From NCBI GenBank assembly GCA_023898585.1, contig CP060229.1, positions 381,912-445,911 on the forward strand: a stretch of 64,000 nt of DNA. Reading direction: 5' to 3'. Origin of the DNA: Candidatus Nomurabacteria bacterium (lineage in GTDB: Bacteria > Patescibacteriota > Minisyncoccia > Phycocordibacterales > UBA918). Positions 8,656 through 49,417 of this stretch are shown one piece after another. The translations under genes and the position numbers were made by a program. Each line of letters opens with the position of its first letter. Position 1 is the first letter of the stretch. A model generated the notes under the pieces. That model did no database searches, was not told where the DNA came from, and saw only the letters and a list, made by a program, of their open reading frames with translations.

Positions 8656-8832
8656 CATCAGTGATTTTTCAAAACTTGGAACCACAAAAACACCCTCAAG
8701 AATAATTTAAATATCTCACTCTCTATTTTTGTGCCTCTGAAAGGTACCCCTTCGGGCCGGAGACAAGCTTATAAACTTGCTGTCCCTTCGATTCCTGACG
8801 AGAGCAAAGCAGTTTGCTCTCTGTAGGGGCAC

Positions 8833-8860
8833 GAACAAAAATAGCACACTGATGTGTGCT
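8833..8860 (-). terminator. hairpin agcacac-tgat-gtgtgct plus U-run downstream of tRNA-Arg (minus strand)
   Basis: 7-bp perfect stem followed on the minus strand by UUUUUGUU. Confidence 0.45.
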
Positions 8861-8873
8861 CATTTTGTACTCG

Positions 8874-21177: not shown

Positions 21178-21390
21178 AAGGTACAGTATTCGTCGACCAT
21201 AAAAGGGGACATCGCTTGCGCATTGCTCCAAACCATTGACAATAATTAAAAACCATGTAGTATATGTTTGCTGGCAAGACCGGCGATTCATTAAAAAATG
21301 AGTCGAAGTACCTAAAAAACATGGACTCCAGGCGGAGTCAAAGGGACATAGTCTCAAAAAGAAAAGGGTCGGAGGACTTCTAAAAAACTC

Positions 21391-21423
21391 AAAGGCCGGA
21401 ATACAATGCAGTACCGGCCTTTT
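21391..21423 (+). terminator. hairpin aaaggccgg/ccggccttt followed by T-run
   Basis: 9-bp perfect stem plus tttt. Confidence 0.55.
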
Positions 21424-21532
21424 ATAATTGTTTTTTCGGTGCTGTATTGAGCAAATAGTTTCAAGAAGCGAAGTTACTGTCAAATTAACAATTCGACTGA
21501 ATCCTTGCAACGACAATGTGGCGGGACGTTTT

Positions 21533-22411
21533 CTAATCAATAGCTTGTGAACACCTCTCTAGTAATTGGACTGGTTTCACCAAGTTAATACCGAAGTGAT
21601 GTCGATCGTTCACATAGTGAGCAAGGTACTTCGGGAGATGCTGATTGATCACTCGATGGTCAACCGGTAGTGCGTCCAGACACTCTTCCCGCAGAGTCCG
21701 GTTAAAGCGTTCAACGTGAGCATTGTCATTGGACTTCCTAACCCGGGTATGTCGATGACGTATTTGTATACGCTCCGTAAAGTGGGTACTGAACTCACTC
21801 CCATTGTCCGTTTGTACACACTGAAACAGAAACGGTGCTGCCACTTGAGCTTGTTTAATGAAGTCTGTGGCGGTACGACAGTTGGCTCTTGTATAGCAAC
21901 GAGCATAGGCCCACCTCGAGTACACATCAATACAGGTGAAGACATACAGTACCGTCTTGCCTTGCACCGCCAGATGTACCGTATCGGCTTGTATTAAGGC
22001 TCCTGGAGCGTTAACTAATGGTCGTGGACTTGGTGGGTGATATCGCTTCCACGGACTCCGTTTCTTGGTATAGCCACCTCGGTCTAGAGTACGCTTCACG
22101 GTACTTAGTGATACATGAATGCCATTCTCTGCCAGTACCCGGTGTACCACTTCCGATGATCGTTTGGTACGCAAACGAACGTCAACAATCTTTTCGACCA
22201 ACCCATTGTCTAACGTCCGATGACTATGTTTAGGTCGACTGCTCTTTGTGGGAATAGGGTGAAGACCAATGACTTTAGCTTTCTTGCGCCACTCCACAAT
22301 CGCTCCTGGTGAGAAACCGAAGTGCCTGGCAGCACACCGTACTCCGTGTTTATTGGCAAACAATACAGCGTCTCTACGAATCTTGGGCATCTTAGGATTG
22401 GTTGTGTACAT
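21533..22411 (-). CDS. IS481-family transposase (HTH plus rve integrase core, DDE)
   Basis: IQADTVHL (D), VQTDNGSEF (D), NDNAHVERFNRTLREE (E) rve motifs. 292 aa. Confidence 0.8.
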   Translation of the reverse strand: MYTTNPKMPKIRRDAVLFANKHGVRCAARHFGFSPGAIVEWRKKAKVIGLHPIPTKSSRPKHSHRTLDNGLVEKIVDVRLRTKRSSEVVHRVLAENGIHVSLSTVKRTLDRGGYTKKRSPWKRYHPPSPRPLVNAPGALIQADTVHLAVQGKTVLYVFTCIDVYSRWAYARCYTRANCRTATDFIKQAQVAAPFLFQCVQTDNGSEFSTHFTERIQIRHRHTRVRKSNDNAHVERFNRTLREECLDALPVDHRVINQHLPKYLAHYVNDRHHFGINLVKPVQLLERCSQAID

Positions 22412-24180: not shown

Positions 24181-24450
24181 ATGTCTCACGAAATAAATAA
24201 GAGTAAATTAATAAGAAGACTGAAACTTATCGAAGGCCAGGTGCGAGGTTTACAACGGATGATAGAAAAAGACACGTACTGCATTGATGTTATTACTCAG
24301 ACTTCGTCTGTAAAGCAGGCTCTGTCCAACGTGGAAGATATCTTGCTCAAAGATCACCTTTCTCATTGTTTGGTTAATCAGATTAAGGAAGGGAAGGTGG
24401 AAAAGGCGAGGGACGAAATACTGAAGGTTTACCAATTAAAACGGAAATGA
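24181..24450 (+). CDS. csoR: CsoR/RcnR-family metal-sensing transcriptional repressor
   Basis: ~89 aa with RLKLIEGQVRGLQRMIEKDTYCIDVITQ...HLSHC. Directly upstream of copA with 4-bp overlap. Confidence 0.75.
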   Translation: MSHEINKSKLIRRLKLIEGQVRGLQRMIEKDTYCIDVITQTSSVKQALSNVEDILLKDHLSHCLVNQIKEGKVEKARDEILKVYQLKRK

Positions 24451-26684: not shown

Positions 26685-27700
26685 GCAATTCAAAAATAAT
26701 CACCCTACACATTGCCGGGACTCACTGCAATGCCTGCAAACATTTAATTGAAGATGTCATGTCAGAAGAAAAGAATCTCAGTGAAGTAAAAGTGTCGCTA
26801 AAAGATGAAACCATTTCGTTTACTACAACATTGGGAAATACTAGGGAAGAACTGGCCGGTATGCTAACTTCTATTCTCAGTAAACATAACTACAGCGTAC
26901 ATGTCGAAAGACAGGAAACAAAAAAACTGAAAGATGAATGGACCTGCGCGATAGTACTTGTGTTTGTCGCGATACTTGGTTTTGTTTTGCTCGAAAAAAC
27001 CGGCCTGGCTTCATCTGTTAGTTTGAACGAAACCACCTTCACAACCGCTTTTGTGGTTGGTTTGGTAGCCTCTGTCTCCACTTGTTTGGCGGTTGTTGGT
27101 GGACTGGTTCTTTCCGTTTCGGCGACTTATGCTCATGAAGGAAAAGGATGGCGACCGCAAGCTTTATTCCACATTGGTCGGTTGGCCGGTTTCTTTTTGC
27201 TTGGTGGGTTGTTGGGAGCGCTTGGTGAAATAATGCATATCGGGATCTATGGCAGTGCAGTACTTGGAGGACTGGTCAGCGTGGTGATGGTTGTGCTCGG
27301 AATCCATTTGCTTGATGTGACAAAAAAAGTAAGGATGTTCACTTTGCCTAAAAGCGTCTCAACATTTTTCACTGAAATTGCACATAAAACAGGCGTCTTC
27401 GCTCCGGTGTTGCTTGGAGTTGCTACTTTTTTTCTCCCTTGCGGTTTTACGCAGTCAATGCAGATAGTTGCGCTTTCGTCCGGAAGTTTCTTCACCGGTT
27501 CTCTCGCAATGCTCATGTTCGCTTTAGGTACTTTGCCGGTGTTAGCGCTATTATCCTTCGGTTCGCTCGATTTGGCTAAAAGTCGATTCAAAGGGGTGTT
27601 TTTCAAAACAGCCGGTCTCTTGGTTATACTTTTCGCTTTGTTCAATCTCCATAACACATTAGTCATTTTTAGTATCATTACACCAATAATTAGTTTTTAG
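26681..27700 (+). CDS. HMA-domain protein fused to polytopic membrane domain (CcdA/DsbD_2- or TauE-like), probable metal handling
   Basis: N-terminal HMA-like GTHCNACK. Six or more TMs with Cys in TM segments (VSTCLAV, FLPCGF). Confidence 0.5.
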   Translation: MSNSKIITLHIAGTHCNACKHLIEDVMSEEKNLSEVKVSLKDETISFTTTLGNTREELAGMLTSILSKHNYSVHVERQETKKLKDEWTCAIVLVFVAILGFVLLEKTGLASSVSLNETTFTTAFVVGLVASVSTCLAVVGGLVLSVSATYAHEGKGWRPQALFHIGRLAGFFLLGGLLGALGEIMHIGIYGSAVLGGLVSVVMVVLGIHLLDVTKKVRMFTLPKSVSTFFTEIAHKTGVFAPVLLGVATFFLPCGFTQSMQIVALSSGSFFTGSLAMLMFALGTLPVLALLSFGSLDLAKSRFKGVFFKTAGLLVILFALFNLHNTLVIFSIITPIISF

Positions 27701-27701
27701 T

Positions 27702-28115
27702 ATGCAAACAAAACATATAGCCGTAATAATCTTGGGAGTTGGTCTGCTGATTGGAATCAGCGCCATGTCAAGGAATAATTCTTTTCCGGCCGATATAGAT
27801 GCTAGTAATACCGGCGGAATAGCCGGTGCTGAGGCGGTTGTGGAAGATGGCGTTCAGTACATCGACATAACCGCAAGAGGTGGATATTTTCCAAGGGTCA
27901 CCAAGGCCAAAGCCGGCGTGGAGACGGTCATTCGCGTGAGAACCGAAGGTACCTATGATTGTTCTAGTGCCTTGGTGATACCTGATATTGGTTATCAGTC
28001 ATATCTTAAACAAACGGGAGTGGAAGAAATCAAGATTCCGCTTGAAAAGACCAAAGGCAAACTTCGAGGTATGTGTTCGATGGCGATGTACCAATTTGAA
28101 GTCGATTTTGAATAA
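27702..28115 (+). CDS. membrane-anchored cupredoxin-like domain protein
   Basis: TM anchor plus a Cupredoxin_1-like sequence (YIDITARGGYFP...). The last gene of the copper operon. Confidence 0.55.
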   Translation: MQTKHIAVIILGVGLLIGISAMSRNNSFPADIDASNTGGIAGAEAVVEDGVQYIDITARGGYFPRVTKAKAGVETVIRVRTEGTYDCSSALVIPDIGYQSYLKQTGVEEIKIPLEKTKGKLRGMCSMAMYQFEVDFE

Positions 28116-36992: not shown

Positions 36993-37108
36993 TATTTTGT
37001 ACGAGAGGATAGTTCTAAATTCCCATTAGTGTCCATTTGGCTAGAAATGAAATGATTAGGAATTACAAAGCTATTTGGTTTCAATTACCGTTTGGGCACT
37101 TACTGTCC

Positions 37109-37177
37109 ATGGGGTGGAACCAGTTTGAGGAAATTTGTTTGGAGTGGTTGGAGGAGGCGAGGGAGGTGCTTGTATAA
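37109..37177 (+). CDS. candidate conserved small ORF (22 aa, MGWNQFEEICLEWLEEAREVLV); a paralogous copy ends at 38769
   Basis: Two copies differ mostly by synonymous or conservative codon changes, but both lack a clear SD. A cis-element explanation is equally possible. Confidence 0.25.
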   Translation: MGWNQFEEICLEWLEEAREVLV

Positions 37178-37181
37178 AAAA

Positions 37182-37212
37182 CCGCGTCCTTTGCCATAAG
37201 CTAGGGACGCGG
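37182..37212 (-). terminator. hairpin ccgcgtcc/ggacgcgg plus U6 on minus strand, directly after the 449-aa gene
   Basis: 8-bp GC stem, 15-nt loop. The minus-strand RNA is followed by UUUUUU. Confidence 0.55.
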
Positions 37213-37223
37213 CATTTACCTCA

Positions 37224-38573
37224 TTATTCGACGTTAAGGAGTTGCATCATTCGATCATAGTCGTTTTCCAGCACTTTTTCCTTGATGGGTCGGTGCGTTG
37301 GGTCAACTTCCACGCGATAACCTTGTACGAGACATGTCTCTCGACTTCCGACACCGTTGGTAAAGTCGGGTTCGCCCACCAGTGCATACGCATTTGCACT
37401 CTTGGGGAGTACAGCCTCCACTTCCTTGCGATCGTAGCGAAAGATCGGAACAGGGTAGTTCGAATCGGTATAGAATCGTACCGCTTCTCCCACCTGTTGC
37501 ATGGATTTCACCAGGAACTCTGGTTCGTACGTATCAGCCCGAGCACCTTTCTTTGGCACTTGTGTGAACCAGGTCTCATCCGGCAGTTGCATGAGCACCA
37601 TGAGGCCTCCTGGCGCTTGGTCGAGTCCGGTTGGCTCCATGAGTTCACGCCAGTGCTTTAGTAGCAACTTGCGTGCATCAGGACCTTTGCGGATTTCACC
37701 AGCATCACCCTCACGGACGCCAAACATGCGTGTTCCATCACCCCATCCATGGGGTCCAATGTCACACGACCAGGTTGGGAGACGACCATAGTCATTGCCC
37801 TGGACTTGGGAAATCGCGCCGATACTCAACAGGTGGGCAAAGGCAAAACCTTCTTCCACCTCCTGGTATACGTAGCTACAGCTTGCATCACCAGGTTGGA
37901 TGATGTATGGGTTCATCGGACCACTGCTCGGATCATACGCGTGATGCTTCTTGTAGAACTCGATTGCCAGCCTTGCGTGCTCGGTCAAATATTCAGAAGC
38001 CCGAGGACCGAGTCGTGCACGCAGCACCGGATCGACAAATGCTTCCACAGCCGAAAGGATTGAGAGGAAAGGGTACTGGTACCGACGAAGGTATGTCTCC
38101 AGTTCCACCACCTCGACCGGACCATAGTGTCCACTTTCGAGTTTGTGGAACTCGTCGATCGTGATGCGACCACCTTCTCGTCCGCGAGTCTTGTCGCTTG
38201 TTTGCCACTTGTAGGCGTCGACAACACCACGTTCGGTTGCCATCGGGCCAACGCCGTGGGCAACGAGTAGGATCTTGATGCCACCTTTGCTCATCCCTAC
38301 GTACTCGGCAGACATCGTGGTGAAGTACTGATCCCACGGGGTCGGGTTGGAAGGGTCGTAGCCATTCAGGTGTTTCGGCGGAGTTGCAAGCCGTGCATCG
38401 ACCACGTCAAGCATGGTGCCGACATGACCTTTGTCTCCAGCGAATCTGGAAGCTTGCCGGAAGGATGGCACGAAGCCATCCATGTGGAAGAAGCTCATAG
38501 CTTCACCAGTTGCGGTTTTTTCAGACATTAGTAGTCTCCTTGTTTCCGTTTTTGGATTTGAAGGAACGGACAA
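37224..38573 (-). CDS. hypothetical protein (449 aa) in GC-rich island
   Basis: Long ORF in a locally GC-rich stretch, with many spurious antisense ORFs on the + strand. No family recognised by eye. Confidence 0.6.
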   Translation of the reverse strand: MSVPSNPKTETRRLLMSEKTATGEAMSFFHMDGFVPSFRQASRFAGDKGHVGTMLDVVDARLATPPKHLNGYDPSNPTPWDQYFTTMSAEYVGMSKGGIKILLVAHGVGPMATERGVVDAYKWQTSDKTRGREGGRITIDEFHKLESGHYGPVEVVELETYLRRYQYPFLSILSAVEAFVDPVLRARLGPRASEYLTEHARLAIEFYKKHHAYDPSSGPMNPYIIQPGDASCSYVYQEVEEGFAFAHLLSIGAISQVQGNDYGRLPTWSCDIGPHGWGDGTRMFGVREGDAGEIRKGPDARKLLLKHWRELMEPTGLDQAPGGLMVLMQLPDETWFTQVPKKGARADTYEPEFLVKSMQQVGEAVRFYTDSNYPVPIFRYDRKEVEAVLPKSANAYALVGEPDFTNGVGSRETCLVQGYRVEVDPTHRPIKEKVLENDYDRMMQLLNVE

Positions 38574-38773
38574 TGTGTCCGGCGAAACAATACAATATAA
38601 AGATTTATTTGTCTACATTAAAAAAGTCCATAGTGGAACTAAAAAGTCATTATTTTATTCTGTTTCCCAGATATCTAGGACAGTAGGGCACGTACTGTCT
38701 CTCGGGTGGAACCAGTTTGAGGAATTGTGTATTGAATGGCTTGAAGAAGCGAGAGTAATTTTTGTATGAAAAA

Positions 38774-38826
38774 GCCACCCTTCCGCCGAAACGAAAGGGT
38801 CGCTTTCAGTTTCGTGGTTGGGTGGC
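38774..38826 (-). terminator. hairpin gccaccc...gggtggc plus U5 on minus strand, directly after the 116-aa gene
   Basis: 7-bp outer stem with structured loop. The minus-strand RNA is followed by UUUUU. Confidence 0.4.
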
Positions 38827-38827
38827 G

Positions 38828-39178
38828 TCAGTCAGGGCGGCGGCCTTCTTTCCAGCCACCGCATATGGACTTGTAACCAGGCGGGAACGCCTCGTTGAAC
38901 GTGTGACCACCGTGTTCTTCCAGGGCGCGTTGGACTTCCCAGCACACTTCGTCCCGCTGTTCTTCGGTCATGTTGATGAACTGCATGGTGTAGACTCGCG
39001 CCATTGCGTGAATGTCGGGCGACGTTTCGATACTGGGGTCAGTCAGGAAGTTGACGGTAGTGGTGTCGAGTCGCTCGAAGCTCCACCGTTTCTGAAATGC
39101 TGTCTGTACAGCGTGGCGAATGGCTTTCATCTGCGGTACTTCGTCCGCAGTGAAACCGGTCACATCGACAATAGGCAT
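38828..39178 (-). CDS. hypothetical protein (116 aa), possibly tautomerase-superfamily-like (Met-Pro start)
   Basis: MPIVDVTGF... with Pro at position 2, ~116 aa. GC-rich codon usage. Family assignment is weak. Confidence 0.3.
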   Translation of the reverse strand: MPIVDVTGFTADEVPQMKAIRHAVQTAFQKRWSFERLDTTTVNFLTDPSIETSPDIHAMARVYTMQFINMTEEQRDEVCWEVQRALEEHGGHTFNEAFPPGYKSICGGWKEGRRPD

Positions 39179-39189
39179 CGTGTCCTCCT

Positions 39190-39723
39190 TCAGGCCAGGA
39201 AGTTCCGGCCGTCGAGCTTGTCATTGCTGTTTTCGAATGCGTAACGACCGAGCGCCTTGAGTGAGTCAGCGGTCATCCCGGAGATGAGCTGGTCAATACA
39301 CGGTTTTTCGCCCGAGAAGCCGACCACCAGTCCGTGTCGTTTGACGCCGCCCCAGTAGGGCGTGTCGCCCGAGAACAGCAGGTGAGCGTTCGAATCGGTC
39401 TGCCCGTCATCGTTGCGTCCCTGCCAGAGCTGGAGCGCCTTGCAACGGGCGATGTCGTCGAACGGGTACTCCCAGTTATCCTTTTCACCCACGCTCTCTT
39501 CATAGAGCAAGTGCGGGTAAATCGGGTAGTTGGGCCAGTCGGGGTAGTCTTCCGATCGCACGTCGTCCATCGACGGAACGAGGATGACGAGATGACCTTG
39601 GCGACGCTTCATGGCGTCGGCGTAAGGGCCTTCTTCGGCGAATAGTGTGACCGAAAACACCTGCTTGGCCACCTGGGCGGCCAGTTGCGGGGTGAGGTAC
39701 TTGGGGGTGAGCAATTGGCTCAT
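39190..39723 (-). CDS. GlcG/DUF336-family protein
   Basis: GGVKRHGLVVGFSGEKPCIDQLISG resembles the DUF336 core motif. The likely start is the Met at 39723 (the ORF-track frame extends to 39816). Confidence 0.5.
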   Translation of the reverse strand: MSQLLTPKYLTPQLAAQVAKQVFSVTLFAEEGPYADAMKRRQGHLVILVPSMDDVRSEDYPDWPNYPIYPHLLYEESVGEKDNWEYPFDDIARCKALQLWQGRNDDGQTDSNAHLLFSGDTPYWGGVKRHGLVVGFSGEKPCIDQLISGMTADSLKALGRYAFENSNDKLDGRNFLA

Positions 39724-39879
39724 GTCGTTTCTCCACTTGGTTGCGAATTGTGATTGCCGAAATGGCGGGAACTTGTAGATCGTAGTGATCCATAAGCTGG
39801 CAAAAAAGTATAGCAAAAGTCAATTTTTGTAAATACTAACTCGACATTAGTGAAACTAGAATCTTCTGTCTGACCTGGG

Positions 39880-41634
39880 CTATGCAGAGATTTTTTCCTC
39901 TATGATGCTCTTCAAATCAGCAACGTCGTCGCTAACGTATGATTCTGGTAGGTGAGAAGCAGATTCAATTTCGACTTTTGCTTCCTCGTACTTTTTATTG
40001 TCTAAGTAGTGTCGAGCTTTTTCGTAATGCCATATTTGAGAGGCAATATTTTTATTTTTAGTTGATGCAAAGCGTTCTATGGCTTTTGTGTAGTACGCAT
40101 CTCCTTTGTTATTTTTGCCAGTTCGGAAACAAAGCAGTCCTTTTGTTGCTGAAAGTGATGGTGGCAGCTCATCGTCTTTATACTTTTTGAGGATATCCTC
40201 AGCTTTTTTAAAATGTCCGCCTAAAATGTAAGCGTGAGCTAGGTTGTTTTCAATGTAAGGCATGTCAAAACCAAGCTCTAGTGCACCTTCAAGTAGTTTT
40301 ATTGACGCTTCGTAATCCTTGTCTAGTGAAGAAAGTATAAAACTATAGTCAGGGTAAACTTCACGGATGCGAGGTTCTATTTCTAGAGATTTCTCGAAAT
40401 AAGTTTTTGCATTGTCGTATTGCTTCATCCTCCCTAGGTATGCTCCTCTTAGGTAAAAACCAAAAGCATCCTCTGGGTGAATGCGTAATATGAAGTCGGC
40501 TGTTTCTTTTAGTTTATCTAAGTCGTCTCTGTCAACGGCTGATCTCCCTATGTTGTAAGATGATTTTAGGTGATCAATTTTGATATTAAGATTGCGCTTG
40601 CCGGAGATGTGTTTTTTGAATAAAGAGGCAGCTTTTTCGAAACAAGCGTCACCTTGAGTGTTCAGACCAACTGATTTATAGCAAACTCCAAGATTGTTGT
40701 ATAAAAGATCGTTGTTTTTCTCTTCTTGTATCTTCTTTTGGTACCAGGGTATCGCTTCTTCGAAGTTTCTTAGCTCCATTAGTAGCCAACCAATCTTATG
40801 CTCCCAAACGTGGTCGAGTATCAACTGACTATGTTTTGCCTTTACGAGTGTTTCTAAGGCTTCAGCGTATTTTTTTCCGTTCACGTACAGATAGGCCAGG
40901 TTTTGATAACTGTGTATATATCTAGGATCTATTTCAATAACACTCTTGAAAAGACCTTCCGCATCTCCAGGGTTGCCAGACCGTAGATGGGCCACCCCAA
41001 GGTTATTTATCGCGTGTATATAACGGTTATTTATAGATCTTGATCTTTCAAAATACGTTACTGAACCTTCTATGTCTTTCTTAAGGTTTAGGAGTATAAA
41101 CCCATGAGTGTTGATAACTTCGTAGTCTGCTGGATCTTTTTGTTCAGCTTCATTTAAAACGCTGATGGCTTCCTCTACATCACGATTTTTTTCATCTATT
41201 AAAGCTTTAAAAATGGCATACTTATGCAAAATATCTGGGCGACGATTGGTAACTTCTAGTACCTTCCTGAAAAATAGGTTTGCTTGGTCGATGTCCTTGT
41301 GTGATATGCATGCAAAGAGTATTTTTTCGTATGCCGGTAAATGGTCAGGTTTTAAATCTATCGCCATTAGGAAGTAGGTGATAGCACGTTTGTAATTACC
41401 TTTCATTAGGTACAGATCGCCAACCTGCATTAGAGTCTGTGGTGCCTCGCGTTCACTAAGTCTTTTCTTGGCGAACCTCATTTGCTCATTTATGAACTTA
41501 TGTTTAAACTTGTGTCCGAAAGAGTTGACGGGAGAAGCGTCTGTAGAGGAAATAGGAGTATGAGTTGGTCGTGATTTTGCAGCACCAATAACCGGTTCGA
41601 TGTAATCGTTGGTATTTTGGGTCTGAGTAATCAT
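39880..41634 (-). CDS. TPR-repeat protein (584 aa)
   Basis: Multiple 34-residue TPR-like repeats (W/LG/Y...A...F...A...P patterns). 4-bp overlap with the upstream kinase gene. Confidence 0.7.
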   Translation of the reverse strand: MITQTQNTNDYIEPVIGAAKSRPTHTPISSTDASPVNSFGHKFKHKFINEQMRFAKKRLSEREAPQTLMQVGDLYLMKGNYKRAITYFLMAIDLKPDHLPAYEKILFACISHKDIDQANLFFRKVLEVTNRRPDILHKYAIFKALIDEKNRDVEEAISVLNEAEQKDPADYEVINTHGFILLNLKKDIEGSVTYFERSRSINNRYIHAINNLGVAHLRSGNPGDAEGLFKSVIEIDPRYIHSYQNLAYLYVNGKKYAEALETLVKAKHSQLILDHVWEHKIGWLLMELRNFEEAIPWYQKKIQEEKNNDLLYNNLGVCYKSVGLNTQGDACFEKAASLFKKHISGKRNLNIKIDHLKSSYNIGRSAVDRDDLDKLKETADFILRIHPEDAFGFYLRGAYLGRMKQYDNAKTYFEKSLEIEPRIREVYPDYSFILSSLDKDYEASIKLLEGALELGFDMPYIENNLAHAYILGGHFKKAEDILKKYKDDELPPSLSATKGLLCFRTGKNNKGDAYYTKAIERFASTKNKNIASQIWHYEKARHYLDNKKYEEAKVEIESASHLPESYVSDDVADLKSIIEEKISA

Positions 41635-42608
41635 ATGTTGAGTTTGTCTAAATCTGCTTCCAGTTCCTCGATGCTATTGTATCTTCTGGAATGGTCGATA
41701 TCACAGAGCTTTTCAATGATTTTGTTAATCTCCTGGGTTAGTTGGTAATCTACCAGAGATACGTGTAAGTTTGAGTAGTCGAGATTTCTTCTTGTTTCAA
41801 GCCACTTGCTATAAAACTGTTCTCTTTCGGTATAGGTTTTTCCGTTCGTGCTAAACGAGTTTTGTTGCATGTAGGTACCAATATCTCCCACAAGTTGTGA
41901 GTAATGTATTATTGGTGTTCCGTTAAATAGGAAAGATAATAAAATACCGAGAGCATAGTGATCGGTCTTTTTAGAAAGACCGATATTAGTACCGTCTGTT
42001 ATCTCAAAGAAGAGTTCGGGAGGACGTACGTATCTATGACCTACGCAAGGACGATCAAGATAATCAAGAGGCTCAAGGTTGTGATCTTTTGCTCTTCCAA
42101 AATCACACAACTTAACCTGTTGTTCGTCACCGTCAAATACTAAAACATTGTTCCACCAGAGATCTCTGTGTACTACGTCCAGTTGGTGGGCATGCTTTAC
42201 ACCAGTACATATCTTTCTGAATGTAGAGATAAGTTCAGAAGGTGTCTGATTATAGTTTTCTTTTATATGGGCATCAAGATTGCCTTGAGCAAGCTCCATC
42301 AGATAGTAGAAAAATGGACTCTCTTCCTCGTTAACACTCAAAGGAAGTATTATTTGTTCGCAATGCAAAGGTGTGTGTAGTCTGTGGAGGATGGTATTTT
42401 CTTGTTTGAAGCGGTCAATCTCTTCTTTGGGAGCGCCGTCTCTGCAGACTTTTAGAGCAATCGGCGAACCGTATTCTTCATTTTTTACCTCGTAGACAAT
42501 ACCAAAATTGCCGCCACCCAGCTCTCTAATTACAGTATTTTCTCGAATCTTTTGCCCTGTCGTTAGCATGGTAGTCGTTACTATAGGCAACACCTTTTCC
42601 GTTGTCAA
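41631..42608 (-). CDS. Ser/Thr protein kinase (Hanks-type)
   Basis: G-loop LGGGNFGIVY, VAIK-like IALKV, catalytic loop HRDLWWNNVLV, DFG (DFGRAKD). Confidence 0.8.
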   Translation of the reverse strand: MTTEKVLPIVTTTMLTTGQKIRENTVIRELGGGNFGIVYEVKNEEYGSPIALKVCRDGAPKEEIDRFKQENTILHRLHTPLHCEQIILPLSVNEEESPFFYYLMELAQGNLDAHIKENYNQTPSELISTFRKICTGVKHAHQLDVVHRDLWWNNVLVFDGDEQQVKLCDFGRAKDHNLEPLDYLDRPCVGHRYVRPPELFFEITDGTNIGLSKKTDHYALGILLSFLFNGTPIIHYSQLVGDIGTYMQQNSFSTNGKTYTEREQFYSKWLETRRNLDYSNLHVSLVDYQLTQEINKIIEKLCDIDHSRRYNSIEELEADLDKLNI

Positions 42609-42662
42609 AGATGAGTATCGAGACTAGGTTACTATCGTTCGCTCATTTTACTGTCACACCTG

Positions 42663-43034
42663 TCACTTTTCAAAGATGGATGCTACTAGTCGATCAATTC
42701 TTTCTTGATCGATCTGTTTTGCGGGCAGTTCGATTGTTTGCCTAGGAATGTCCCAGCCGTAGTTACACCGTAAATTAAACATTGCCCCAGTAACAGCCCC
42801 GCCTCTAAATAGGTGTTCTTCAGCGAATGTCTCACAGCGCTGTTTTGCTGCCTCTATCGTGTCAAAAAATTCCTCTTTTCGTGAGTAATTCAACAATGTT
42901 TGTCGTGTGACTCCGAGAAAAAGAGATAGTCCGGATATTGTATACGGTCGATCTTGTTGATCGCATAGTTGAAAATAGCCGTCCACAGCGGTCTGTAGAG
43001 CTATTTGGTTGTTGAATTTAAGTGGCCTTGACAC
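42663..43034 (-). CDS. phage terminase small subunit-like protein (HTH DNA-packaging protein)
   Basis: Pattern YTISGLSLFLGVTRQTLLNY...EFFDTIEAAKQRCE...FNLRCNYGW resembles TerS-family N-terminal domains. Confidence 0.5.
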   Translation of the reverse strand: MSRPLKFNNQIALQTAVDGYFQLCDQQDRPYTISGLSLFLGVTRQTLLNYSRKEEFFDTIEAAKQRCETFAEEHLFRGGAVTGAMFNLRCNYGWDIPRQTIELPAKQIDQERIDRLVASIFEK

Positions 43035-43049
43035 CTATGTATTTTACCA

Positions 43050-43529
43050 TCAAATACAGGCTGGGCTGGAGTAATTTATTGTTTTGCAGACATACTCTAT
43101 GCCTGCCCTAAAAGCGTATTCGGTTGTTGAGTCCATAAAATCTTCGTTCAAGTCTAGAGCTTTTTCTAGCGCCTCGCTCTGAGCCGCCTGTTTGCCATGT
43201 ATGAATCCTGCGTTATAGCGTGCTTCTCCAAACTCAGATACTGACATGCTGCCTATGTTTATATCAGTACTAGGTTGATTTTCTTCTTCCGTTTCGTACA
43301 AGGACCAAGCGTCTTCATAACCATCTTCGTAACCCACCTCTATACCTGCATCGTAACCAGACGCATATCGTTCCTTCATCTGCGCTGAAATAAATAGCCA
43401 GACTACAATTAGTGCGATTATCGTCAATATGGATATGATTATCTTTTTCATGGTTACGTCTGTATACAAAAAGCCCACTGCTAAAAGGTAGGATGTGAGT
43501 CCACATGCCCAGTTTCCCAGACATGACAC
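43050..43529 (-). CDS. hypothetical membrane-anchored protein
   Basis: The likely start is the internal Met (MKKIIISILTIIALIVVWLF). Acidic ectodomain. Confidence 0.4.
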   Translation of the reverse strand: MSCLGNWACGLTSYLLAVGFLYTDVTMKKIIISILTIIALIVVWLFISAQMKERYASGYDAGIEVGYEDGYEDAWSLYETEEENQPSTDINIGSMSVSEFGEARYNAGFIHGKQAAQSEALEKALDLNEDFMDSTTEYAFRAGIEYVCKTINYSSPACI

Positions 43530-43673
43530 AGAACGTGACCCCGTTAACAGCGGGTTCTTTATCGTTCTGTGATTAACTTATTCGCACCATGCCGCGCCTC
43601 ACGGCAGCGGGTTAGGTGACTATATTGTCTTTTAATAGTATCAGAAATAAGGGTATGATACGAGGAAATGTAA

Positions 43674-44417
43674 ATGTATATGGATGCAAAAAGGGTAAAA
43701 ACAGTATGGAGATCAGTTGTTAAAAGGATTCCTGCCGAATATGTGACTGAAACTCGGGAAAGATTGAATATTCCACCAAAGGGGTTTTTGACCTTTAAGG
43801 ACCAAGAAAAGTGGTATCAAAACGCATTAAAAGAAGTTACTGCAATGAGTCGTGGTGCCTACAAAGGGAAAAGATTAACTGAGCGGCAACGAATCGTCTT
43901 AAACAAAGCATTGGAAAAGACAGATTATGGGATTTTGCAGCAAGCGATTTCTACCATCGTAGAAAAATTTCCAGTACTAAAAGGATATGAAGATGCCGTA
44001 CGGGAAGGTTTGTTGGGCTTAATGAACGAAAAAAGTATCAATTCGGGCGATTACACTGGTTGTGAATTTGCGTATGTGACCAAAGATTCTGGAGATACAG
44101 ATTTATCTGAAGGTTTGTACATCAGGGTTTCCAGTCACACAACCAAGCAAGACATTGATGATTTTTTAACAAAGAAAAAAACTGCTTTTCAAAAGCTGAA
44201 AAAGCTTCTATATCCAGATGAGCCAATCCGTTATCAGGTTTCACCAGCAGCAGAGAGGAAAGAGATGACGAGAATTTTGCGCGACCATTCATTAGTGGAA
44301 CTTAATAAGTTGTGTAAAAAAGAGTGCGAGGAAAGGGGTGATTATGATCCCATATTGCCGACTCGAAAGGATATGGCTATTGAAAGACTTCTTAAATTTT
44401 GGGGATACAAGAAGTGA
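43674..44417 (+). CDS. hypothetical protein (247 aa), divergently transcribed
   Basis: ORF with plausible start. No domain recognised. Confidence 0.45.
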   Translation: MYMDAKRVKTVWRSVVKRIPAEYVTETRERLNIPPKGFLTFKDQEKWYQNALKEVTAMSRGAYKGKRLTERQRIVLNKALEKTDYGILQQAISTIVEKFPVLKGYEDAVREGLLGLMNEKSINSGDYTGCEFAYVTKDSGDTDLSEGLYIRVSSHTTKQDIDDFLTKKKTAFQKLKKLLYPDEPIRYQVSPAAERKEMTRILRDHSLVELNKLCKKECEERGDYDPILPTRKDMAIERLLKFWGYKK

Positions 44418-44504
44418 TCTAGTGCAGTTAAATGACCGTTTGTTAGTAAAAACTCAACTAGGGTTGGGTTTTTACTAACTCCTAATTCTTTTACGGGGAA
44501 TACT

Positions 44505-44744
44505 TTGGTCACTATGACTAATGTATATAAAACATCAGATTTAAATGAGGCGGTCGTACTTTTATGTTATGACCACAAACTAGAGTACATTGATAAAACA
44601 GAGCGGCGGGCACAATTTTGCTTTACGGAGCAATCTGATACCGCTGAAGTAATTAAGAATTATAGGCTACGTGAAATTCAGATAGAGCCACATTCCTTTT
44701 ACCAACACCAACGCGATCTAAAGGATCGTTTGTATAACGGCTAG
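44505..44744 (+). CDS. hypothetical small protein (79 aa)
   Basis: ORF immediately upstream of the primase gene. Confidence 0.4.
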   Translation: MVTMTNVYKTSDLNEAVVLLCYDHKLEYIDKTERRAQFCFTEQSDTAEVIKNYRLREIQIEPHSFYQHQRDLKDRLYNG

Positions 44745-44748
44745 GCTT

Positions 44749-47007
44749 ATGTCAGGTGTAAGTAAATTGAACAACGACAGTAGTCATTTGAATAAGTTAA
44801 AGGAAGCTGCGCTACAGTACGTAAAAGACGGCCACCCCATTGTACCTATGGGCCTCAATGGTGATACAGGGGACTATAAAAGGCCACTAGTAAGGTGGCG
44901 AGATGTAGACGGTCCGGCTCGGACAGAAAAAGCTGTAGAGAGTTTATTTTCCAAGTTTGGCAAACGAATTTTCGGAATCGCAACAATTGTTGAGCGGCAT
45001 ATCCTGGTCGATTTTGATACAGAGGATTCACACAAGTTATTTAGGCTACAACCAGCCCCAACCATTAAAACTGGCAAAGGTAGACACATGTGGTATGCCA
45101 CAACTTCTGTAGTCAAACAGAATGGGCCACTTGACTTGTCTGAACATGAAAAGAGGGACGGTAAAAAATATCAGGTAGAGATTTACACAGAAAAGCGGCT
45201 TGAAATTCTGCCACCCTCTCTACATCACTCTGGTGTGTTGTACGAATGGGAGCTGGACTATACAGATTTCTTAGATTTGTCACCTTTACCTGAAGATTTG
45301 GTCCAATTGTGTGGAATTAAAAAGGAGAAAGTTGGCCAGAAAAAAAGCGACATATTTCAAATCATCTATGAGGGTGAGCGACACAGCAAATTAAAAGAAG
45401 CTTGTTTTTACTTCTTTAATAAGCATAAAGGGAATGGAAAAAAGATAACCAAATCAGTTCTGGCCTGGAACATCGAATATTGTAATCCTCCAATAGATGA
45501 AGGTGAGGTTGGGAACATGGTCGATTGGACTATCAAAAACTTTGATGCACCTGACGGGAAGAAAGACAAAGAACCGAAACAAAGTCAGGCAGTAATTGAG
45601 TATATTGAAGAAAATAAAGCAATTACGCTATTCCACGACCAAGACAAGATTGGTTTTGCTCGCCTCAATTCACAAAAGGGAGTGAATATTCCAATTCACA
45701 GTCAAGAGTTTACTGAGTTTTTATCCCTACTCGCGTATCAATCTGACAAAAGTGTTTTAACGGATTATGTTTGTAAAGAGATTCAGTCAGTTTTACATGC
45801 CAAAGCATTGTATGAGTCTTCCCAGCACGCTCTACAACACCGAGTGTATCAGTCTGGTGAGTGTGAATTTTACTATGACCTCTGCAACGATGCTGGAGAA
45901 GCAGTAAAGATAACAAAAGACGGGTGGACTATTGAATCGGGAGAGAAAATACAGTTTCTTTTTAAGCGCGGTGCTGCAACAGAACAGCCGAGACCAGTTA
46001 AGGGTGGAAACCTAAGACAGTTTCTCGATTTTGTGAATCTCAAAGACGAAGATGAACAGATGTTGTTTTTGTGCACGCTTCCCGTGCGAATGATTCGAGA
46101 TATCGACCAGCCGATCGTTTACATCTACGGCCCAGCTGGAAGTGCAAAAACCACACTGCTTAAACTGACTAAAGACCTGCTTGACCCGTCTCAAGGTGGA
46201 ATTTCAATGCCGGTAAAAAAGCTTGAACACATCACGCCGCTTTTAAATCAGACGTGGGTGTTTGCTAATGACAACATATCTCATATTGGTGACGAGTTGT
46301 CTGACTTCTTTTGTGTAATGGCCACTGGAGCTGAAAGTGCTCGTCGCACCTTGTATAAAGACTCAGAAGTGACAGTGCATCGTGTTAAGAACCCTGCATA
46401 CATGACGGGCATCAACATTGAAGCTAGTAATAGTGACTCACTTAGCAGGTTGTTGATCTTTAAGACTGAAGCGTTGGGTAAGGGGAATCTCAAGAATAAA
46501 AATGATCTTTTTAGAAAATATCAGCAGATGAAACCACAGCTGCTGGGCTCTATTTTTGACACATTAGTAGCAGCTTCGAATGTAAAGCAGGACTTACCAC
46601 AACAGACCGAGTTCCGTATGACTGAATATGCGCTATGGGGCGCTGCATGTGCCGAGGTGCTCGGGTATGGGGCTGAAAATTTTGAAAAGGCTTTACAGAG
46701 AGCAATGAGAGCTCGGGCTTATGACGCCATCCAGTCTTCTAGCGCAGGTCGAGCGCTTTTGAAACACCTCGAAAGCAACCTTTCTTTTGAAGGGACAATG
46801 ACTCAGCTTCTAAAGACACTAAAGGATCTGTATTTTGAGGATGATTTTCATGAAAGATGGGGTGAGACTGTAGCAAACAATCCTGAATCACTAAGCAAGA
46901 AACTGCGTGAACTTGAAAATAGTCTATCAGAGATAGGCATAACCATAGATTTTAAACGAACAGCCACAGAACGATTGATTGTCATAAGTCGAGTAGAGGG
47001 GTTTTAG
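44749..47007 (+). CDS. primase-helicase replication protein (Prim-Pol N-terminal domain plus D5/P4-type P-loop NTPase)
   Basis: Prim-Pol DxD (HILVDFDTED). Walker A GPAGSAKTT in the C-terminal half. 752 aa. Confidence 0.7.
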   Translation: MSGVSKLNNDSSHLNKLKEAALQYVKDGHPIVPMGLNGDTGDYKRPLVRWRDVDGPARTEKAVESLFSKFGKRIFGIATIVERHILVDFDTEDSHKLFRLQPAPTIKTGKGRHMWYATTSVVKQNGPLDLSEHEKRDGKKYQVEIYTEKRLEILPPSLHHSGVLYEWELDYTDFLDLSPLPEDLVQLCGIKKEKVGQKKSDIFQIIYEGERHSKLKEACFYFFNKHKGNGKKITKSVLAWNIEYCNPPIDEGEVGNMVDWTIKNFDAPDGKKDKEPKQSQAVIEYIEENKAITLFHDQDKIGFARLNSQKGVNIPIHSQEFTEFLSLLAYQSDKSVLTDYVCKEIQSVLHAKALYESSQHALQHRVYQSGECEFYYDLCNDAGEAVKITKDGWTIESGEKIQFLFKRGAATEQPRPVKGGNLRQFLDFVNLKDEDEQMLFLCTLPVRMIRDIDQPIVYIYGPAGSAKTTLLKLTKDLLDPSQGGISMPVKKLEHITPLLNQTWVFANDNISHIGDELSDFFCVMATGAESARRTLYKDSEVTVHRVKNPAYMTGINIEASNSDSLSRLLIFKTEALGKGNLKNKNDLFRKYQQMKPQLLGSIFDTLVAASNVKQDLPQQTEFRMTEYALWGAACAEVLGYGAENFEKALQRAMRARAYDAIQSSSAGRALLKHLESNLSFEGTMTQLLKTLKDLYFEDDFHERWGETVANNPESLSKKLRELENSLSEIGITIDFKRTATERLIVISRVEGF

Positions 47008-47019
47008 CATTTTGGCTTA

Positions 47020-47181
47020 TGACCAGCCTCGAAACATTTAAAGAGATTCTTATAGAATGCGGTGTTTCCGTGCCAGAAGAGCAGATCGAAGTGTTTCGTG
47101 ATTTGATTGATGCGCAAGCCGATTTGATTTTAGACTCATGGCTCAAAAGTAAACATGACGGTTGTGACAGTGTAAAATAAA
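47020..47181 (+). CDS. small hypothetical ORF (53 aa) between primase and recombinase
   Basis: Unlisted ORF MTSLETFKEILIECGVSVPEEQIEVFRDLIDAQADLILDSWLKSKHDGCDSVK. Fills the intergenic gap. Confidence 0.3.
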
Positions 47182-47184
47182 CGT

Positions 47185-48933
47185 ATGCAGAAAGAACGGC
47201 CCAGGACATGTCTAGCTAGTGCACGAATCAGTAGCCAACAACAAATGGCTGGTGAGAGTCTTGATGATCAGGTGCGAGTTCTCAAAACTACCGCTGAACA
47301 TAAAGGACTTAAGATACTACCTGACGGTGAGGTAGCCGTTGAGATATTCACTGGTACAAAACGTCGTCCTGTGTACGAACAGCACATTCAGTACATCAAA
47401 GACAATCCGGGCAAGGTTGGTTACTATCTAATTCGATACATTGATCGCTTTACTCGTGGTGGTGCCTCTGTCTATCACGACATGAAAAAAGAACTTTCCG
47501 ATTTGGGAGTGATGCTCATTGATACAAACGGAATCATCCAAGAATCACGGAACATGCCGGAATTGGCTGAGATGGGTTTTGAATATGAGTGGAGTGTCGA
47601 ATCACCAAGTGACATGACTGAGGTGATGATGGCAACAACAGCCAAACAGGAACGCGACACAATTCTAAAAAGAACAATTCCTAAGCAGATTGCTTATACT
47701 CAAAAAGGATTTCAGATAGGTCGCCCTGACGATGGAATGATGAACTATCGTACTCAAGTGGGGACACAGATACGATTTGTGCAGGTCCCCGATCCAGAGC
47801 GCGCTCACTTCATAAGAAAAATATTTGAGCTACGGGCAGAGAATAAACACTCTGATCAAGAGATACTTCATATTGTGAATGAAGACATGGGGTTTCGTAC
47901 TAAAAAATTCCATCGCTGGAATAAAACCCACACAGAGATTATCGGTGAAGGAGGTGGCCACAAGCTTCATATCAAGCAGCTACAGCGCATTTATCAGCGT
48001 TTAGCGTATGCAGGTGTACTTTGCGAGAAATGGACGCACCACAAGCCAATTAAGGCGCAATGGGACGGCTTAGTATCAATTGAGCTATGGAACAAAGCAA
48101 ACCGTGGCAAGATTTTCATTAAGGAGTACGACAATGACCTGTTGGAGATTCTGTACGACTATAAAACCGAGAAGCCCGTCTATCAACGACTTCGATACAA
48201 CCCAGAGTATCCTTTCAAGTGTGTAAGTTGTCCGCAGTGCAACAAGCCACTTAAAGGCAGTGCACCACGCGGGCGCGGCGGAACATACCCACGCTATCAC
48301 TGTGAACGTGGCCACACTTCATTTACGGTCAGTCGGCAACAAATGAATCAGACTGTCGAAGCATTTTTGGACAGTGTCGATTATGACGATGATTATCTGA
48401 AAGTTTTAGAAGAAGTGCTGGTCCGTAAACTACGACAGCGACAGAAAGATATTGTGCAGGAATCAGAGAAGCTAAACGAACGAGTCACTTTATTAAAGAG
48501 CCAACAGAAGCAGGTTCTAGGTACTTTAATCTCAACTGAGAGTCCGACGGTCAAAGTCATGCTTGAGAAAGAATTGGAGACCATTGTTGCTGACATCAAA
48601 AAGGCTGAATCAATTCGTTTCTCTGTCGATCTCACTGAAGGCAATATTACTGAGTTGGTGAGCTACGCACGAAAGATAGTGGAATCACCGAAAAAAGCCT
48701 TGATAGATAAAGACAATCCACTCCGACAGAAGCAGTTATTCAAGCTTTTCTTCGAGGACCTACCAACCTATACAGAATTGGATAGTGGAACCGCTAAAAA
48801 ACGCTTTCTTTTCAATAGGAAATGTATTGTCGAGACCCCTGAAAACAGGGTGTCTAGACAGAAGGGGCGACTACTGGGAATCGAACCCAGATTTCCGGTA
48901 CCACAAACCGGCGTAATAGCCGTTATACAATAG
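47185..48933 (+). CDS. large serine recombinase (resolvase catalytic domain, recombinase domain, zinc ribbon, coiled coil)
   Basis: Catalytic ARISSQQQ (cf. YARVS..Q) and IDRFTRG. Zn-ribbon CVSCPQC...HCERGH. The last ~23 codons overlap tRNA-His on the opposite strand. Confidence 0.75.
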   Translation: MQKERPRTCLASARISSQQQMAGESLDDQVRVLKTTAEHKGLKILPDGEVAVEIFTGTKRRPVYEQHIQYIKDNPGKVGYYLIRYIDRFTRGGASVYHDMKKELSDLGVMLIDTNGIIQESRNMPELAEMGFEYEWSVESPSDMTEVMMATTAKQERDTILKRTIPKQIAYTQKGFQIGRPDDGMMNYRTQVGTQIRFVQVPDPERAHFIRKIFELRAENKHSDQEILHIVNEDMGFRTKKFHRWNKTHTEIIGEGGGHKLHIKQLQRIYQRLAYAGVLCEKWTHHKPIKAQWDGLVSIELWNKANRGKIFIKEYDNDLLEILYDYKTEKPVYQRLRYNPEYPFKCVSCPQCNKPLKGSAPRGRGGTYPRYHCERGHTSFTVSRQQMNQTVEAFLDSVDYDDDYLKVLEEVLVRKLRQRQKDIVQESEKLNERVTLLKSQQKQVLGTLISTESPTVKVMLEKELETIVADIKKAESIRFSVDLTEGNITELVSYARKIVESPKKALIDKDNPLRQKQLFKLFFEDLPTYTELDSGTAKKRFLFNRKCIVETPENRVSRQKGRLLGIEPRFPVPQTGVIAVIQ

Positions 48934-48938
48934 TCGCC
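48866..48938 (-). tRNA. tRNA-His (anticodon GTG) with encoded G-1
   Basis: Manual fold. Extra 5' G pairs with discriminator C. Anticodon loop tTGTGgt. T arm GGGTTCGATTCCC. Confidence 0.75.
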
Positions 48939-49417
48939 ATAAATCGTTCTTTTTCTTTCGAGTAATGATGAACGAGATGGTGGCAATTGTGGCACAACCA
49001 AGCCAAATTTTCAATGCTATTGTTGGAGTGGTTCTCATCAATGTGGTGAACTGCTAATACTCTAGTATCTCCAGAGTTGCATAGTTTACATTTTTTAGGA
49101 GTTTTACCTCGTGAAAGTAAGCTCCGATACGAATGATTACCCGACTTCCAATTAGGGTGCTTTTCTTGAGAGAATTCCCGATTCCTCCACTTTGTTTGGC
49201 AAGACTTGCCACAAAAGAATTTTCCACTTTTTGATCCTTTGAGAGCTTTGGGTGATTTGTATATTTCTTTGTTGCAATAAGAACAGTTTACATATTTACC
49301 AGTTCGAGATGCTTCATGTTGACAGGAGGAAGAACAGTACTTGCCCCAACCTCTCTTTAACCAAGAGGGCTTAGCGTAAAAATCAACCTTACACTTTTCG
49401 CATTGTTTTATAGGCAT
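48923..49417 (-). CDS. HNH endonuclease with N-terminal zinc-finger repeats
   Basis: C-terminal LAVHHIDENHSNNSIENLAWLCHNCH HNH motif. Multiple CxxC pairs. The 3' end overlaps the tRNA-His 5' end by 16 nt. Confidence 0.65.
   Translation of the reverse strand: MPIKQCEKCKVDFYAKPSWLKRGWGKYCSSSCQHEASRTGKYVNCSYCNKEIYKSPKALKGSKSGKFFCGKSCQTKWRNREFSQEKHPNWKSGNHSYRSLLSRGKTPKKCKLCNSGDTRVLAVHHIDENHSNNSIENLAWLCHNCHHLVHHYSKEKERFMATIV

Follow-up and report, generated by a model that had tools for sequence, protein, structure and literature searches.

Among described mobile elements, the closest functional counterparts of the locus analyzed here are the phage-inducible chromosomal islands (PICIs) and the PICI-like tycheposons of Prochlorococcus. 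SatelliteFinder recognizes PICIs from five core components, namely an integrase, for which the tyrosine and serine types are exchangeable, a primase-replicase, a small terminase subunit (TerS), a regulation module (an alpA, merR, or stl homolog), and a capsid-morphogenesis gene; its authors consider three of the five ambiguous, and Proteobacteria and Firmicutes account for >99.9% of the PICIs detected (PMC10085698). Tycheposons, found in Prochlorococcus and other marine bacteria, integrate beside tRNA genes, where successive insertions accrete into hypervariable islands and the newest element is the one adjoining the tRNA; they carry primase, Prim-Pol, and helicase modules, the same integration and replication modules serve their cargo-carrying and PICI-like (terS or MCP) versions, and a minority use large serine recombinases (LSRs) (bioRxiv 10.1101/2020.12.28.424599). 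Here, we analyzed a 64,000-nt stretch of a Candidatus Nomurabacteria bacterium genome (contig CP060229.1, positions 381,912 to 445,911; hereafter, the window), in which genes for an LSR, a primase-helicase, and an orphan TerS lie beside a tRNA-His gene. These genes very probably belong to an LSR-mobilized, self-replicating integrative element bounded by tRNA-His and by a repeat copy that we term Y2, and we put at roughly 50% the probability that this element is a phage satellite of the PICI/tycheposon kind, moved by its tRNA-targeting LSR.

[quoted passage not shown] Integrases with an attachment (att) site in their own gene have been described as exclusively archaeal tyrosine enzymes, the SSV type (PMC8371274). 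A helper virus packages the satellite plasmids pSSVi and pSSVx. The pRN-type relatives replicate with a Prim-Pol/helicase. Of 297 serine integrases (S-Ints), 14 were placed in tRNA genes, an observation given as [quoted passage not shown] (PMC7192596).

The recombinase and its predicted attachment sites

An earlier reading of the window from its letters and open reading frames (ORFs) (hereafter, the sequence-only reading) had delimited a 6.3-kb satellite-like block with its left boundary at 42663. Its architecture, an integrase, a replication gene, and an orphan TerS at tRNA-His without structural genes, was confirmed as of the satellite type, as was its call of a host from the Candidate Phyla Radiation (CPR): the genome is a Patescibacteria/Paceibacteria metagenome-assembled genome (MAG), and one element protein is deposited as H6782_02440, "Candidatus Nomurabacteria bacterium." The boundary had to be moved. 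The LSR-containing unit between recombination sites extends from Y2 at 38686 to ~48864 (~10.18 kb) and takes in a kinase/tetratricopeptide repeat (TPR) pair (PADLOC PDC-M71A/B) and two GC-rich orphan genes that the block had left out. The features that carry the argument are as follows.

38686..38772, plus strand: Y2, read as attL, a P' half-site plus 27 codons and a stop (38686-38769); from nhmmer and in-frame continuation of the LSR gene
42663..43034, minus strand: orphan TerS of the P22 gp3 family, starting at GTG
44749..47007, plus strand: Prim-Pol primase fused to a P-loop (D5/SF3-like) helicase, the replication module (Pfam, PHROG 1156)
47185..48933, plus strand: large serine recombinase in its integrated form, 582 aa (Resolvase, Recombinase, PHROG 95 integrase)
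48864..48937, minus strand: tRNA-His(GTG) (ARAGORN and Rfam)

The 582-aa LSR, already noticed as ending on a tRNA gene, matched Resolvase (33 bits), Recombinase (23.9 bits), and PHROG 95. Its gene overlapped tRNA-His by ~70 nt, such that the last 23 codons are the reverse complement of the tRNA sequence. The protein shows an ARISS motif and a zinc-ribbon-like CVSCPQC…HCERGH (Zn_ribbon_recom was faint in relatives), and a comparison with PDB sequences returned no match. Resolvase and Recombinase domains, the zinc-ribbon motif, and a long C-terminal region are shared with S-Ints of the Bxb1/phiC31/A118/TP901-1 type, as are the lack of long att direct repeats and a small adjacent ORF that may encode a directionality factor. 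Unlike those enzymes, three divergent LSR lineages were here all found at tRNA 3' ends, and attP would lie within the ORF.

Classical att direct repeats, which the sequence-only reading proposed to look for, were not found when 48781-48960 was compared with the window by k-mers and blastn-short: only the T-arm of a tRNA-Arg and chance matches were recovered, and tRNA fragments of at least 11 nt were absent elsewhere in the window. A repeat of another kind, Y (~87 nt), occurred in 30 copies from 19 sources, two in the window and 28 in 18 related Paceibacteria loci (loci and contigs carry L numbers below). Every copy was on the plus strand and on the 3' side (left) of tRNA-His. [quoted passage not shown] Entropy by codon position was 1.39 at the third position versus 0.95 and 0.74 at positions 1 and 2, and this excess variability of third positions points to selection on the coding sequence. 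When joined to Y2 at …CAGAAG, the LSR gene stayed in frame and encoded 587 aa ending …VSRQKGHVLSLGWNQFEELCIEWLEEARVIFV before the stop, and in L024 a related LSR was naturally fused to a Y copy. Because Y opens with sequence resembling the tRNA 3' end and extends the LSR frame, attP would lie inside the LSR gene; from these sequence relationships we conclude that Y is probably the P' side of an attP within the LSR 3' end, with Y2 as attL. Reading Y2 as attL sets the element at 38686-48864.

Y copies and tRNA-His genes all begin GGGC, and between L006 and L007 identity of 97% begins exactly at the tRNA 3' end rightward, the two being unrelated leftward. We infer that attR lies at the 3' end of tRNA-His and that crossover falls within 48865-48876, probably at GGGC (48865-48868). 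The reconstructed attP contains a dyad, AGACAG…CTGTCT, centered on GGGC. A strictly symmetric attP was considered and rejected, the dyad being clear in the window and at the junction of Y2 with X, the right end of the neighboring unit described below, and weak in the P arms of L007 and L024; the crossover dinucleotide was left unfixed. The predicted attP junction would join …GTGTCTAGACAGAAG to GGGCACGTACTGTCTCTC… (in fuller form, …CCTGAAAACAGGGTGTCTAGACAGAAG to GGGCACGTACTGTCTCTCGGGTGGAACC…), and the site predicted to be restored on excision would join …TATCTAGGACAGTA to GGGCGACTACTGGG… (in fuller form, …CAGATATCTAGGACAGTA to GGGCGACTACTGGGAATCG…).

Directly left of Y2 lies a 1.6-kb unit without an LSR, composed of the following features.

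37094..37181, plus strand: Y1, left end of the unit; 77% identity to Y2, nhmmer 69.9 bits; encodes GHLLSMGWNQFEEICLEWLEEAREVLV and a stop
37224..38573, minus strand: 449-aa GC-rich orphan gene, the sole gene of the unit, GC 0.52
38650..38685, plus strand: X, P-arm-like right end of the unit (…TATCTAGGACAGTA), resembling the LSR gene 3' end

In L016 the X sequence adjoins tRNA-His without a gap, and in L011 and L054 it adjoins Y copies; with Y2 it forms the dyad GACAGTA-N7-TACTGTC. The Y1-to-X segment (37094-38685) has the pattern expected of serial insertion at one site followed by decay.

In the mechanism that we propose, the LSR would insert the ~10.18-kb element at the tRNA-His 3' end. The LSR ORF of the excised circle would cross attP into Y and end …GHVLSLGWNQFEELCIEWLEEARVIFV, whereas upon integration Y would stay at the far end as attL and the LSR ORF would end in 23 antisense tRNA codons. 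Integration would thereby exchange the last 27 residues of the LSR for a 23-codon tail encoded antisense by the tRNA, and with crossover in the last few nucleotides of the tRNA, the tRNA would remain intact. Excision may be aided by the 53-aa protein encoded upstream of the LSR. An att site within the integrase's own gene and a tRNA target are likenesses to the SSV type, evident here from the in-frame LSR-Y junction, the L024 fusion, and the circular relative L101 (below). Unlike the SSV type, in which a tyrosine recombinase gene is split and inactivated, the element uses a serine recombinase whose gene would exchange no more than its last 27 codons.

Packaging, replication, and cargo genes

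The suspected TerS scored 72.2 bits (cutoff 29.4) against Pfam GP3_package (PF16677), in an alignment covering positions 2-100 of the 105-position profile, and 81 bits against PHROG 606 ("terminase small subunit"); a direct match to PDB 3P9A was weak (E = 0.1). It aligned over its full length with phage TerS, including the N-terminal MSRPLKF, and retained all family-invariant residues. The best homologs (57-65% identity) were phage genes, with 108 matches in IMG/VR, and homologs at 40-59% identity directly preceded genes for the large terminase subunit (TerL), portal, and capsid. A TerL-sized ORF immediately followed the TerS homolog in 64 of 76 IMG/VR loci (identified as TerL by Pfam in 7 of 10 sampled), the order in L091 and L094 was TerS-TerL-P22/SU10 portal-capsid, and annotated Clostridium and Pseudoalteromonas phages label the homolog small terminase. 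TerS was the only element gene in common with these phages, and many of the longer viral contigs with a related TerS were ~33-48 kb, roughly four times the element. In the window TerS is orphaned, adjoining the kinase/TPR pair with no TerL remnant beside it. In phage contig L108 (548-2845), the TerL gene beside a TerS homolog carries a Hint/LAGLIDADG intein-type insertion.

The excised circle would be copied by the element's own Prim-Pol/helicase, and the orphan TerS would most likely steer the TerL of an infecting pac-type phage to headful packaging of element DNA. The helper would be a phage of roughly 35-45 kb with a P22/SU10-like portal, and each head would hold about four element copies; an element about one quarter the size of TerS-carrying phage genomes fits headful packaging of concatemers as in PICMI (PMC10803314). 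Likeness to PICMI also lies in small size, an integrase, a small regulator-type ORF, a primase, and the lack of capsid-remodeling genes. Unlike PICMI, the element carries TerS, a Prim-Pol-type primase, and a tRNA-His site; it has no AlpA, and neither the DUF3987/DUF5906 primase families nor the fis site is present.

No capsid, portal, TerL, tail, or lysis gene was detected by Pfam and PHROG among all sizeable ORFs in 20-54 kb, nor was any holin or connector gene. The claim that structural phage genes were missing held outside the block as well, for ~27 kb leftward and ~15 kb rightward, and the remaining window was colinear with related host genomes. TerS, integrase, and primase can all occur in prophages, and an S49 peptidase of the relative L086 matches PHROG 53 "head maturation protease," as might be expected of a decayed prophage stripped of its structural genes. 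However, all ORFs between the att sites are intact with no structural-gene fragment among them, TerS adjoins no TerL remnant, independent relatives are equal in size, one of them being a complete 10.5-kb circle, and the 326-aa ORF beside the L086 peptidase, tried as a capsid protein, yielded a SEC-C motif only. We therefore regard a prophage remnant as scarcely credible.

The predicted primase-helicase was recovered by profile search as an N-terminal Prim-Pol domain (37.7 bits) followed by a P-loop. An AF2 model built from 12 homologs reached a pLDDT of 70.6, with the ATPase core at low confidence, and its top 50 Foldseek matches were primase-helicases throughout, including ASFV PrimPol, NrS-1, poxvirus D5/E5, and SaPI5 (7OLA); the primase profile matched PDB sequences in the P-loop only. 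Homologs at 50-54% identity were rare (33 proteins in 5.8 billion) and lay in a conserved module that runs from a gene for a 229-295-aa protein through DUF5659 (in some cases) and the primase to a small ORF and an LSR. The LSRs of these elements are ≤22% identical to the window LSR, and their 3' ends overlap, antisense, tRNA-Tyr (L086, L088, and L089) or tRNA-Asn (L087). Matching attL sites in L086 and L087 consist of a host-type hairpin, the first 6-8 nt of the tRNA, and then an LSR-frame continuation, giving elements of 11.0 and 11.9 kb, respectively; continued through attL, the L086 LSR ends …HELCAELEAVRQRCVA before a stop. L100, an independent contig, bridges the ends of L101 (10,514 bp), and the two are circular permutations of each other; this relative hence occurs either as a circle or as a tandem repeat. 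The LSR ORF of L101 stays open across the junction, encoding 525 aa versus 496 aa in the integrated L087.

Cargo of the relatives includes the S49 peptidase with the PHROG 53 match in L086, L103, and L104, and a NERD nuclease in L101. The L087 element also holds a diversity-generating retroelement (DGR)-like pair of bAvd and reverse transcriptase (4919-6317), and a PLD-SNF2 helicase and an MmeI-like methyltransferase lie upstream in L088 (1-6632). DUF5681 proteins of related elements were tried as a disguised TerS and rejected (hhalign probability 0.8%, no PDB match).

The remaining features of the element are listed below.

38777..38800, minus strand: terminator-like hairpin, a 10-bp stem with 5 GC pairs, then a T run
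38828..39178, minus strand: 116-aa GC-rich orphan gene (ORF), cargo
39190..39816, minus strand: 208-aa GC-rich orphan gene (ORF), cargo
39880..41634, minus strand: TPR-repeat protein, second gene of a candidate defense pair (Pfam TPR families; PADLOC PDC-M71B, 95 bits)
41631..42608, minus strand: Ser/Thr protein kinase, first gene of the candidate defense pair (Pkinase, 119.7 bits)
43050..43529, minus strand: 109-aa small membrane protein, function unassigned, probable ATG at 43379
43674..44417, plus strand: 247-aa protein (ORF), first gene of the rightward block
44505..44744, plus strand: DUF5659 protein (Pfam, 37.4 bits), probable ATG at 44514
47019..47180, plus strand: 53-aa acidic protein, candidate recombination directionality factor by position only

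The hairpin closes the leftward gene block directly inside Y2. The kinase and TPR genes overlap by 4 nt, and the kinase also matched PADLOC mad6 (126 bits), PD-T4-6, PDC-M71A (84 bits), and Stk2. By homology the pair is probably antiphage cargo, and its match to the PADLOC candidate system PDC-M71A/B is consistent with the defense cargo common in satellites. The 449-, 116-, and 208-aa orphans had no match in Pfam, PHROG, PADLOC, or NCBIfam. All three lie in a patch at 37000-39900 with GC of 0.52-0.55 versus ~0.41-0.43 nearby (0.55 over 38686-39880); the patch spans Y2, such that two neighboring recombination units hold cargo of similarly foreign composition.

A small divergent gene pair (43050-43529, minus; 43674-44417, plus) had been proposed as a PICI-like regulatory switch, but no helix-turn-helix (HTH) or repressor signature was detected in its products, which had no match in Pfam, PHROG, PADLOC, or NCBIfam. 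The former product is also called as 109 aa in identical contigs. The 247-aa protein is weakly conserved (25% identity to a 229-aa counterpart at the same position in L086), its family comprises just 24 unannotated representatives among 1.84 billion proteins, and its single-sequence AF2 model (pLDDT 55.8) was unusable, a Pfam or PDB relative likewise not being found. The DUF5659 protein also precedes the primase in L086 (46% identity). The 53-aa protein had no family match and is 67-68% identical to proteins adjoining the close LSRs of L007 and L105, and the gene in its slot in L087 encodes a strong HTH_17 (57.8 bits). Tandem repeats or iterons that might mark an origin or pac site were sought with nothing convincing found, and a generic and inverted-repeat search of 39.8-49 kb gave chance-level pairs only.

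Set against the SatelliteFinder components, the PICI identity assigned by the sequence-only reading therefore held in part. Three of the five were found: an integrase (Resolvase, Recombinase, and PHROG 95), a primase-replicase (Prim-Pol plus P-loop with a SaPI5-like fold), and TerS (GP3_package and PHROG 606, with homologs beside TerL). A regulation module was not, the 53-, 109/159-, and 247-aa proteins having no HTH or AlpA match and HTH_17 occurring only in the relative L087; nor was a capsid-morphogenesis gene by Pfam or PHROG, although the orphan ORFs could hide an analog. On these comparisons, PICI membership is not established. Like PICIs and SaPIs, the element has site-specific integration, its own primase-helicase of SaPI5 fold, a phage-homologous orphan TerS, defense-type cargo, and no structural or lysis genes. 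Unlike them, it carries an LSR rather than their usual tyrosine integrase, resides in a CPR host, has a different gene order, and transcribes TerS away from the replication block.

The tRNA-His flank in related genomes

The order tRNA-His, mscL, ribonucleotide reductase was kept in ~60 related MAGs. An empty-site arrangement, as envisaged by the sequence-only reading, was recovered: a conserved host gene equivalent to window 20263-21177 lies 1.3 kb from tRNA-His in L010 and 27.7 kb from it in the window. The window DNA between those anchors constitutes an island that holds an rve transposase, a copper ATPase block, HSP20, a PEP-utilizing enzyme, transporters, methyltransferases, the GC-rich patch, the TPR/kinase pair, and the original 6.3-kb block. 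LSRs of L007 and L028 are 82% and 62% identical to that of the window and show the same tRNA-His overlap.

Y copies form arrays of 2-4 per locus, spaced 1.3-2.2 kb apart in one orientation and in many cases without an LSR nearby. In L006, a 229-nt direct repeat (5671-5897 and 8644-8872, 97.8% identity), made up of the downstream flank of tRNA-His and the first 12 nt of the tRNA or Y, brackets ~3 kb with two Y copies, and mobile units can thus carry the tRNA terminator region along. The arrays, the end of this repeat 12 nt inside the tRNA or Y, and a Y-bounded unit between the LSR and tRNA in L024 could be read as an immobile or domesticated integron-like platform, on which a resident serine recombinase shuffles Y-bounded cassettes and the TerS/primase block is one fixed cassette. 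Yet LSR units are consistently 9-12 kb with a replication module and a circular relative, and LSR, primase, and cargo recombine among elements and tRNA targets as mobile elements would. Accretion of decayed elements by the tRNA accounts for the arrays equally well, and we consider such a platform improbable.

With its tRNA-seeded 27.7-kb island, the anchors in L010, and the accreted remnants represented by Y arrays, the locus resembles tycheposons. It is unlike them in that their units are parted by partial tRNA copies, whereas the separator here is Y, which shares ~4-12 nt with the tRNA and encodes the recombinase end; the tRNA-fragment flanks and the clade's tyrosine recombinase are replaced by Y and an LSR. 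Host lineage and protein families also differ, as compared by description.

Contigs of many related MAGs stop exactly at or within tRNA-His (L021, L025, L036, L068, and L069, starting at nt 1-5; L027 and L056), consistent with strain heterogeneity or repeats disrupting assemblies. On the other side of the tRNA, an HNH endonuclease gene with a TRASH-like zinc ribbon (48923-49417, minus strand) overlaps the tRNA-His 5' end by 15 nt. Its presence in few relatives (L009, 70% identity; L066, 64%) and absence from L006 and L007 suggest a sporadic homing-type insertion. LSR-less sites (L006, L008, L010, L035, and L039) carry TAGCCGCCC or TAGTCGCCC ~45-50 nt past the tRNA-His 3' end, beyond the terminator hairpin. 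The TAGCCGCCC motif is inversely complementary to the acceptor 3' end of the tRNA, with which it partly covaries; Rfam searches of the window, L006, and L010 returned tRNAs only and no RNA family for the motif. Distant serine recombinases (23-25% identity to that of the window) lie 0.5-3.2 kb from tRNA-His in L031, L048, L061, and L062. At the distal edge of the island, beside the last conserved host gene, is an IS-type rve (DDE) transposase gene preceded by a small ORF (21139-22411, minus strand). The copper block (24447-28115) comprises a copper P-type ATPase, DsbD_2, and cupredoxin, and the same gene pair flanks the tRNA-Tyr element in L086 (1-638).

The satellite reading and its implications

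Several observations weigh against a phage satellite. A helper phage was not identified, and no host is assigned to the phages that carry relatives of the TerS; ten metagenome contigs with identical element proteins showed the integrated arrangement only. Scans of IMG/VR for the primase and the predicted attP junction gave zero matches, as did a scan for the Y core, and no Stl/AlpA-type regulator or capsid-size gene was detected in Pfam, PHROG, and NCBIfam searches. The cargo of L007 and L028 is wholly different and lacks primase and TerS, such that the integration module is not specific to satellites, and the many Y-bounded units of 1.3-2.2 kb without an LSR are more suggestive of accreting cassettes than of a satellite. 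The element may have acquired its TerS gene recently and make no use of it. Nor need the C-terminal swap have any functional effect, and by chance alone a 23-codon stretch free of stops would not be improbable.

Part of this evidence bears on a phage-independent integrative replicon, either an integrative plasmid or a cargo-type, tycheposon-like element, replicated by its Prim-Pol and spread by vesicles, transformation, or cell contact, in which TerS would be a captured relic or DNA-binding regulator. Relatives that share the LSR or primase module without a recognizable packaging gene (L007, L028, L087 with its DGR-like cargo, and L101) point in this direction, as does the absence of primase and junction from IMG/VR, and tycheposons, which are enriched in vesicles, include many cargo-only elements built on the same logic (bioRxiv 10.1101/2020.12.28.424599). 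Against this reading, the TerS is full length, keeps the invariant residues, and is 57-65% identical to phage TerS. Moreover, an orphan TerS in an integrative replicon is the defining hallmark of PICI-type satellites, and 10 kb, about one quarter of the related-TerS phage genomes, suits headful concatemer packaging. A phage-independent replicon is thus possible but somewhat unlikely, and a satellite remains our preferred reading.

A more elaborate reading, which we regard as doubtful, joins these strands. Paceibacteria would host a family of 10-12-kb satellites whose LSR carries attP in its own 3' end. The swap of a conserved 27-residue C-terminal helix for a tRNA-antisense tail would serve as an integration-state sensor biasing integration or excision, and reuse of the site would build integron-like arrays of Y cassettes. 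Such a family would be the bacterial serine counterpart of the SSV type and the first satellite system in CPR.

CPR bacteria are epibionts with ~1-Mb genomes, and their viruses and mobile elements are poorly known. The sequence-only reading had anticipated that a satellite there would be essentially undescribed, and we found no paper describing one in that lineage. A self-replicating island with a hijacked packaging gene would, if true, extend phage parasitism by satellites to CPR, and the tRNA-His flank would be the main gene-exchange hot spot of this CPR lineage. Three divergent LSRs at tRNA 3' ends contradict the usual view that serine integrases avoid tRNA genes. With attP in the recombinase's own ORF, the integration module would be a compact one that alters the enzyme's C terminus on integration, and this LSR/attP module may serve as a new class of integrase/att pairs.

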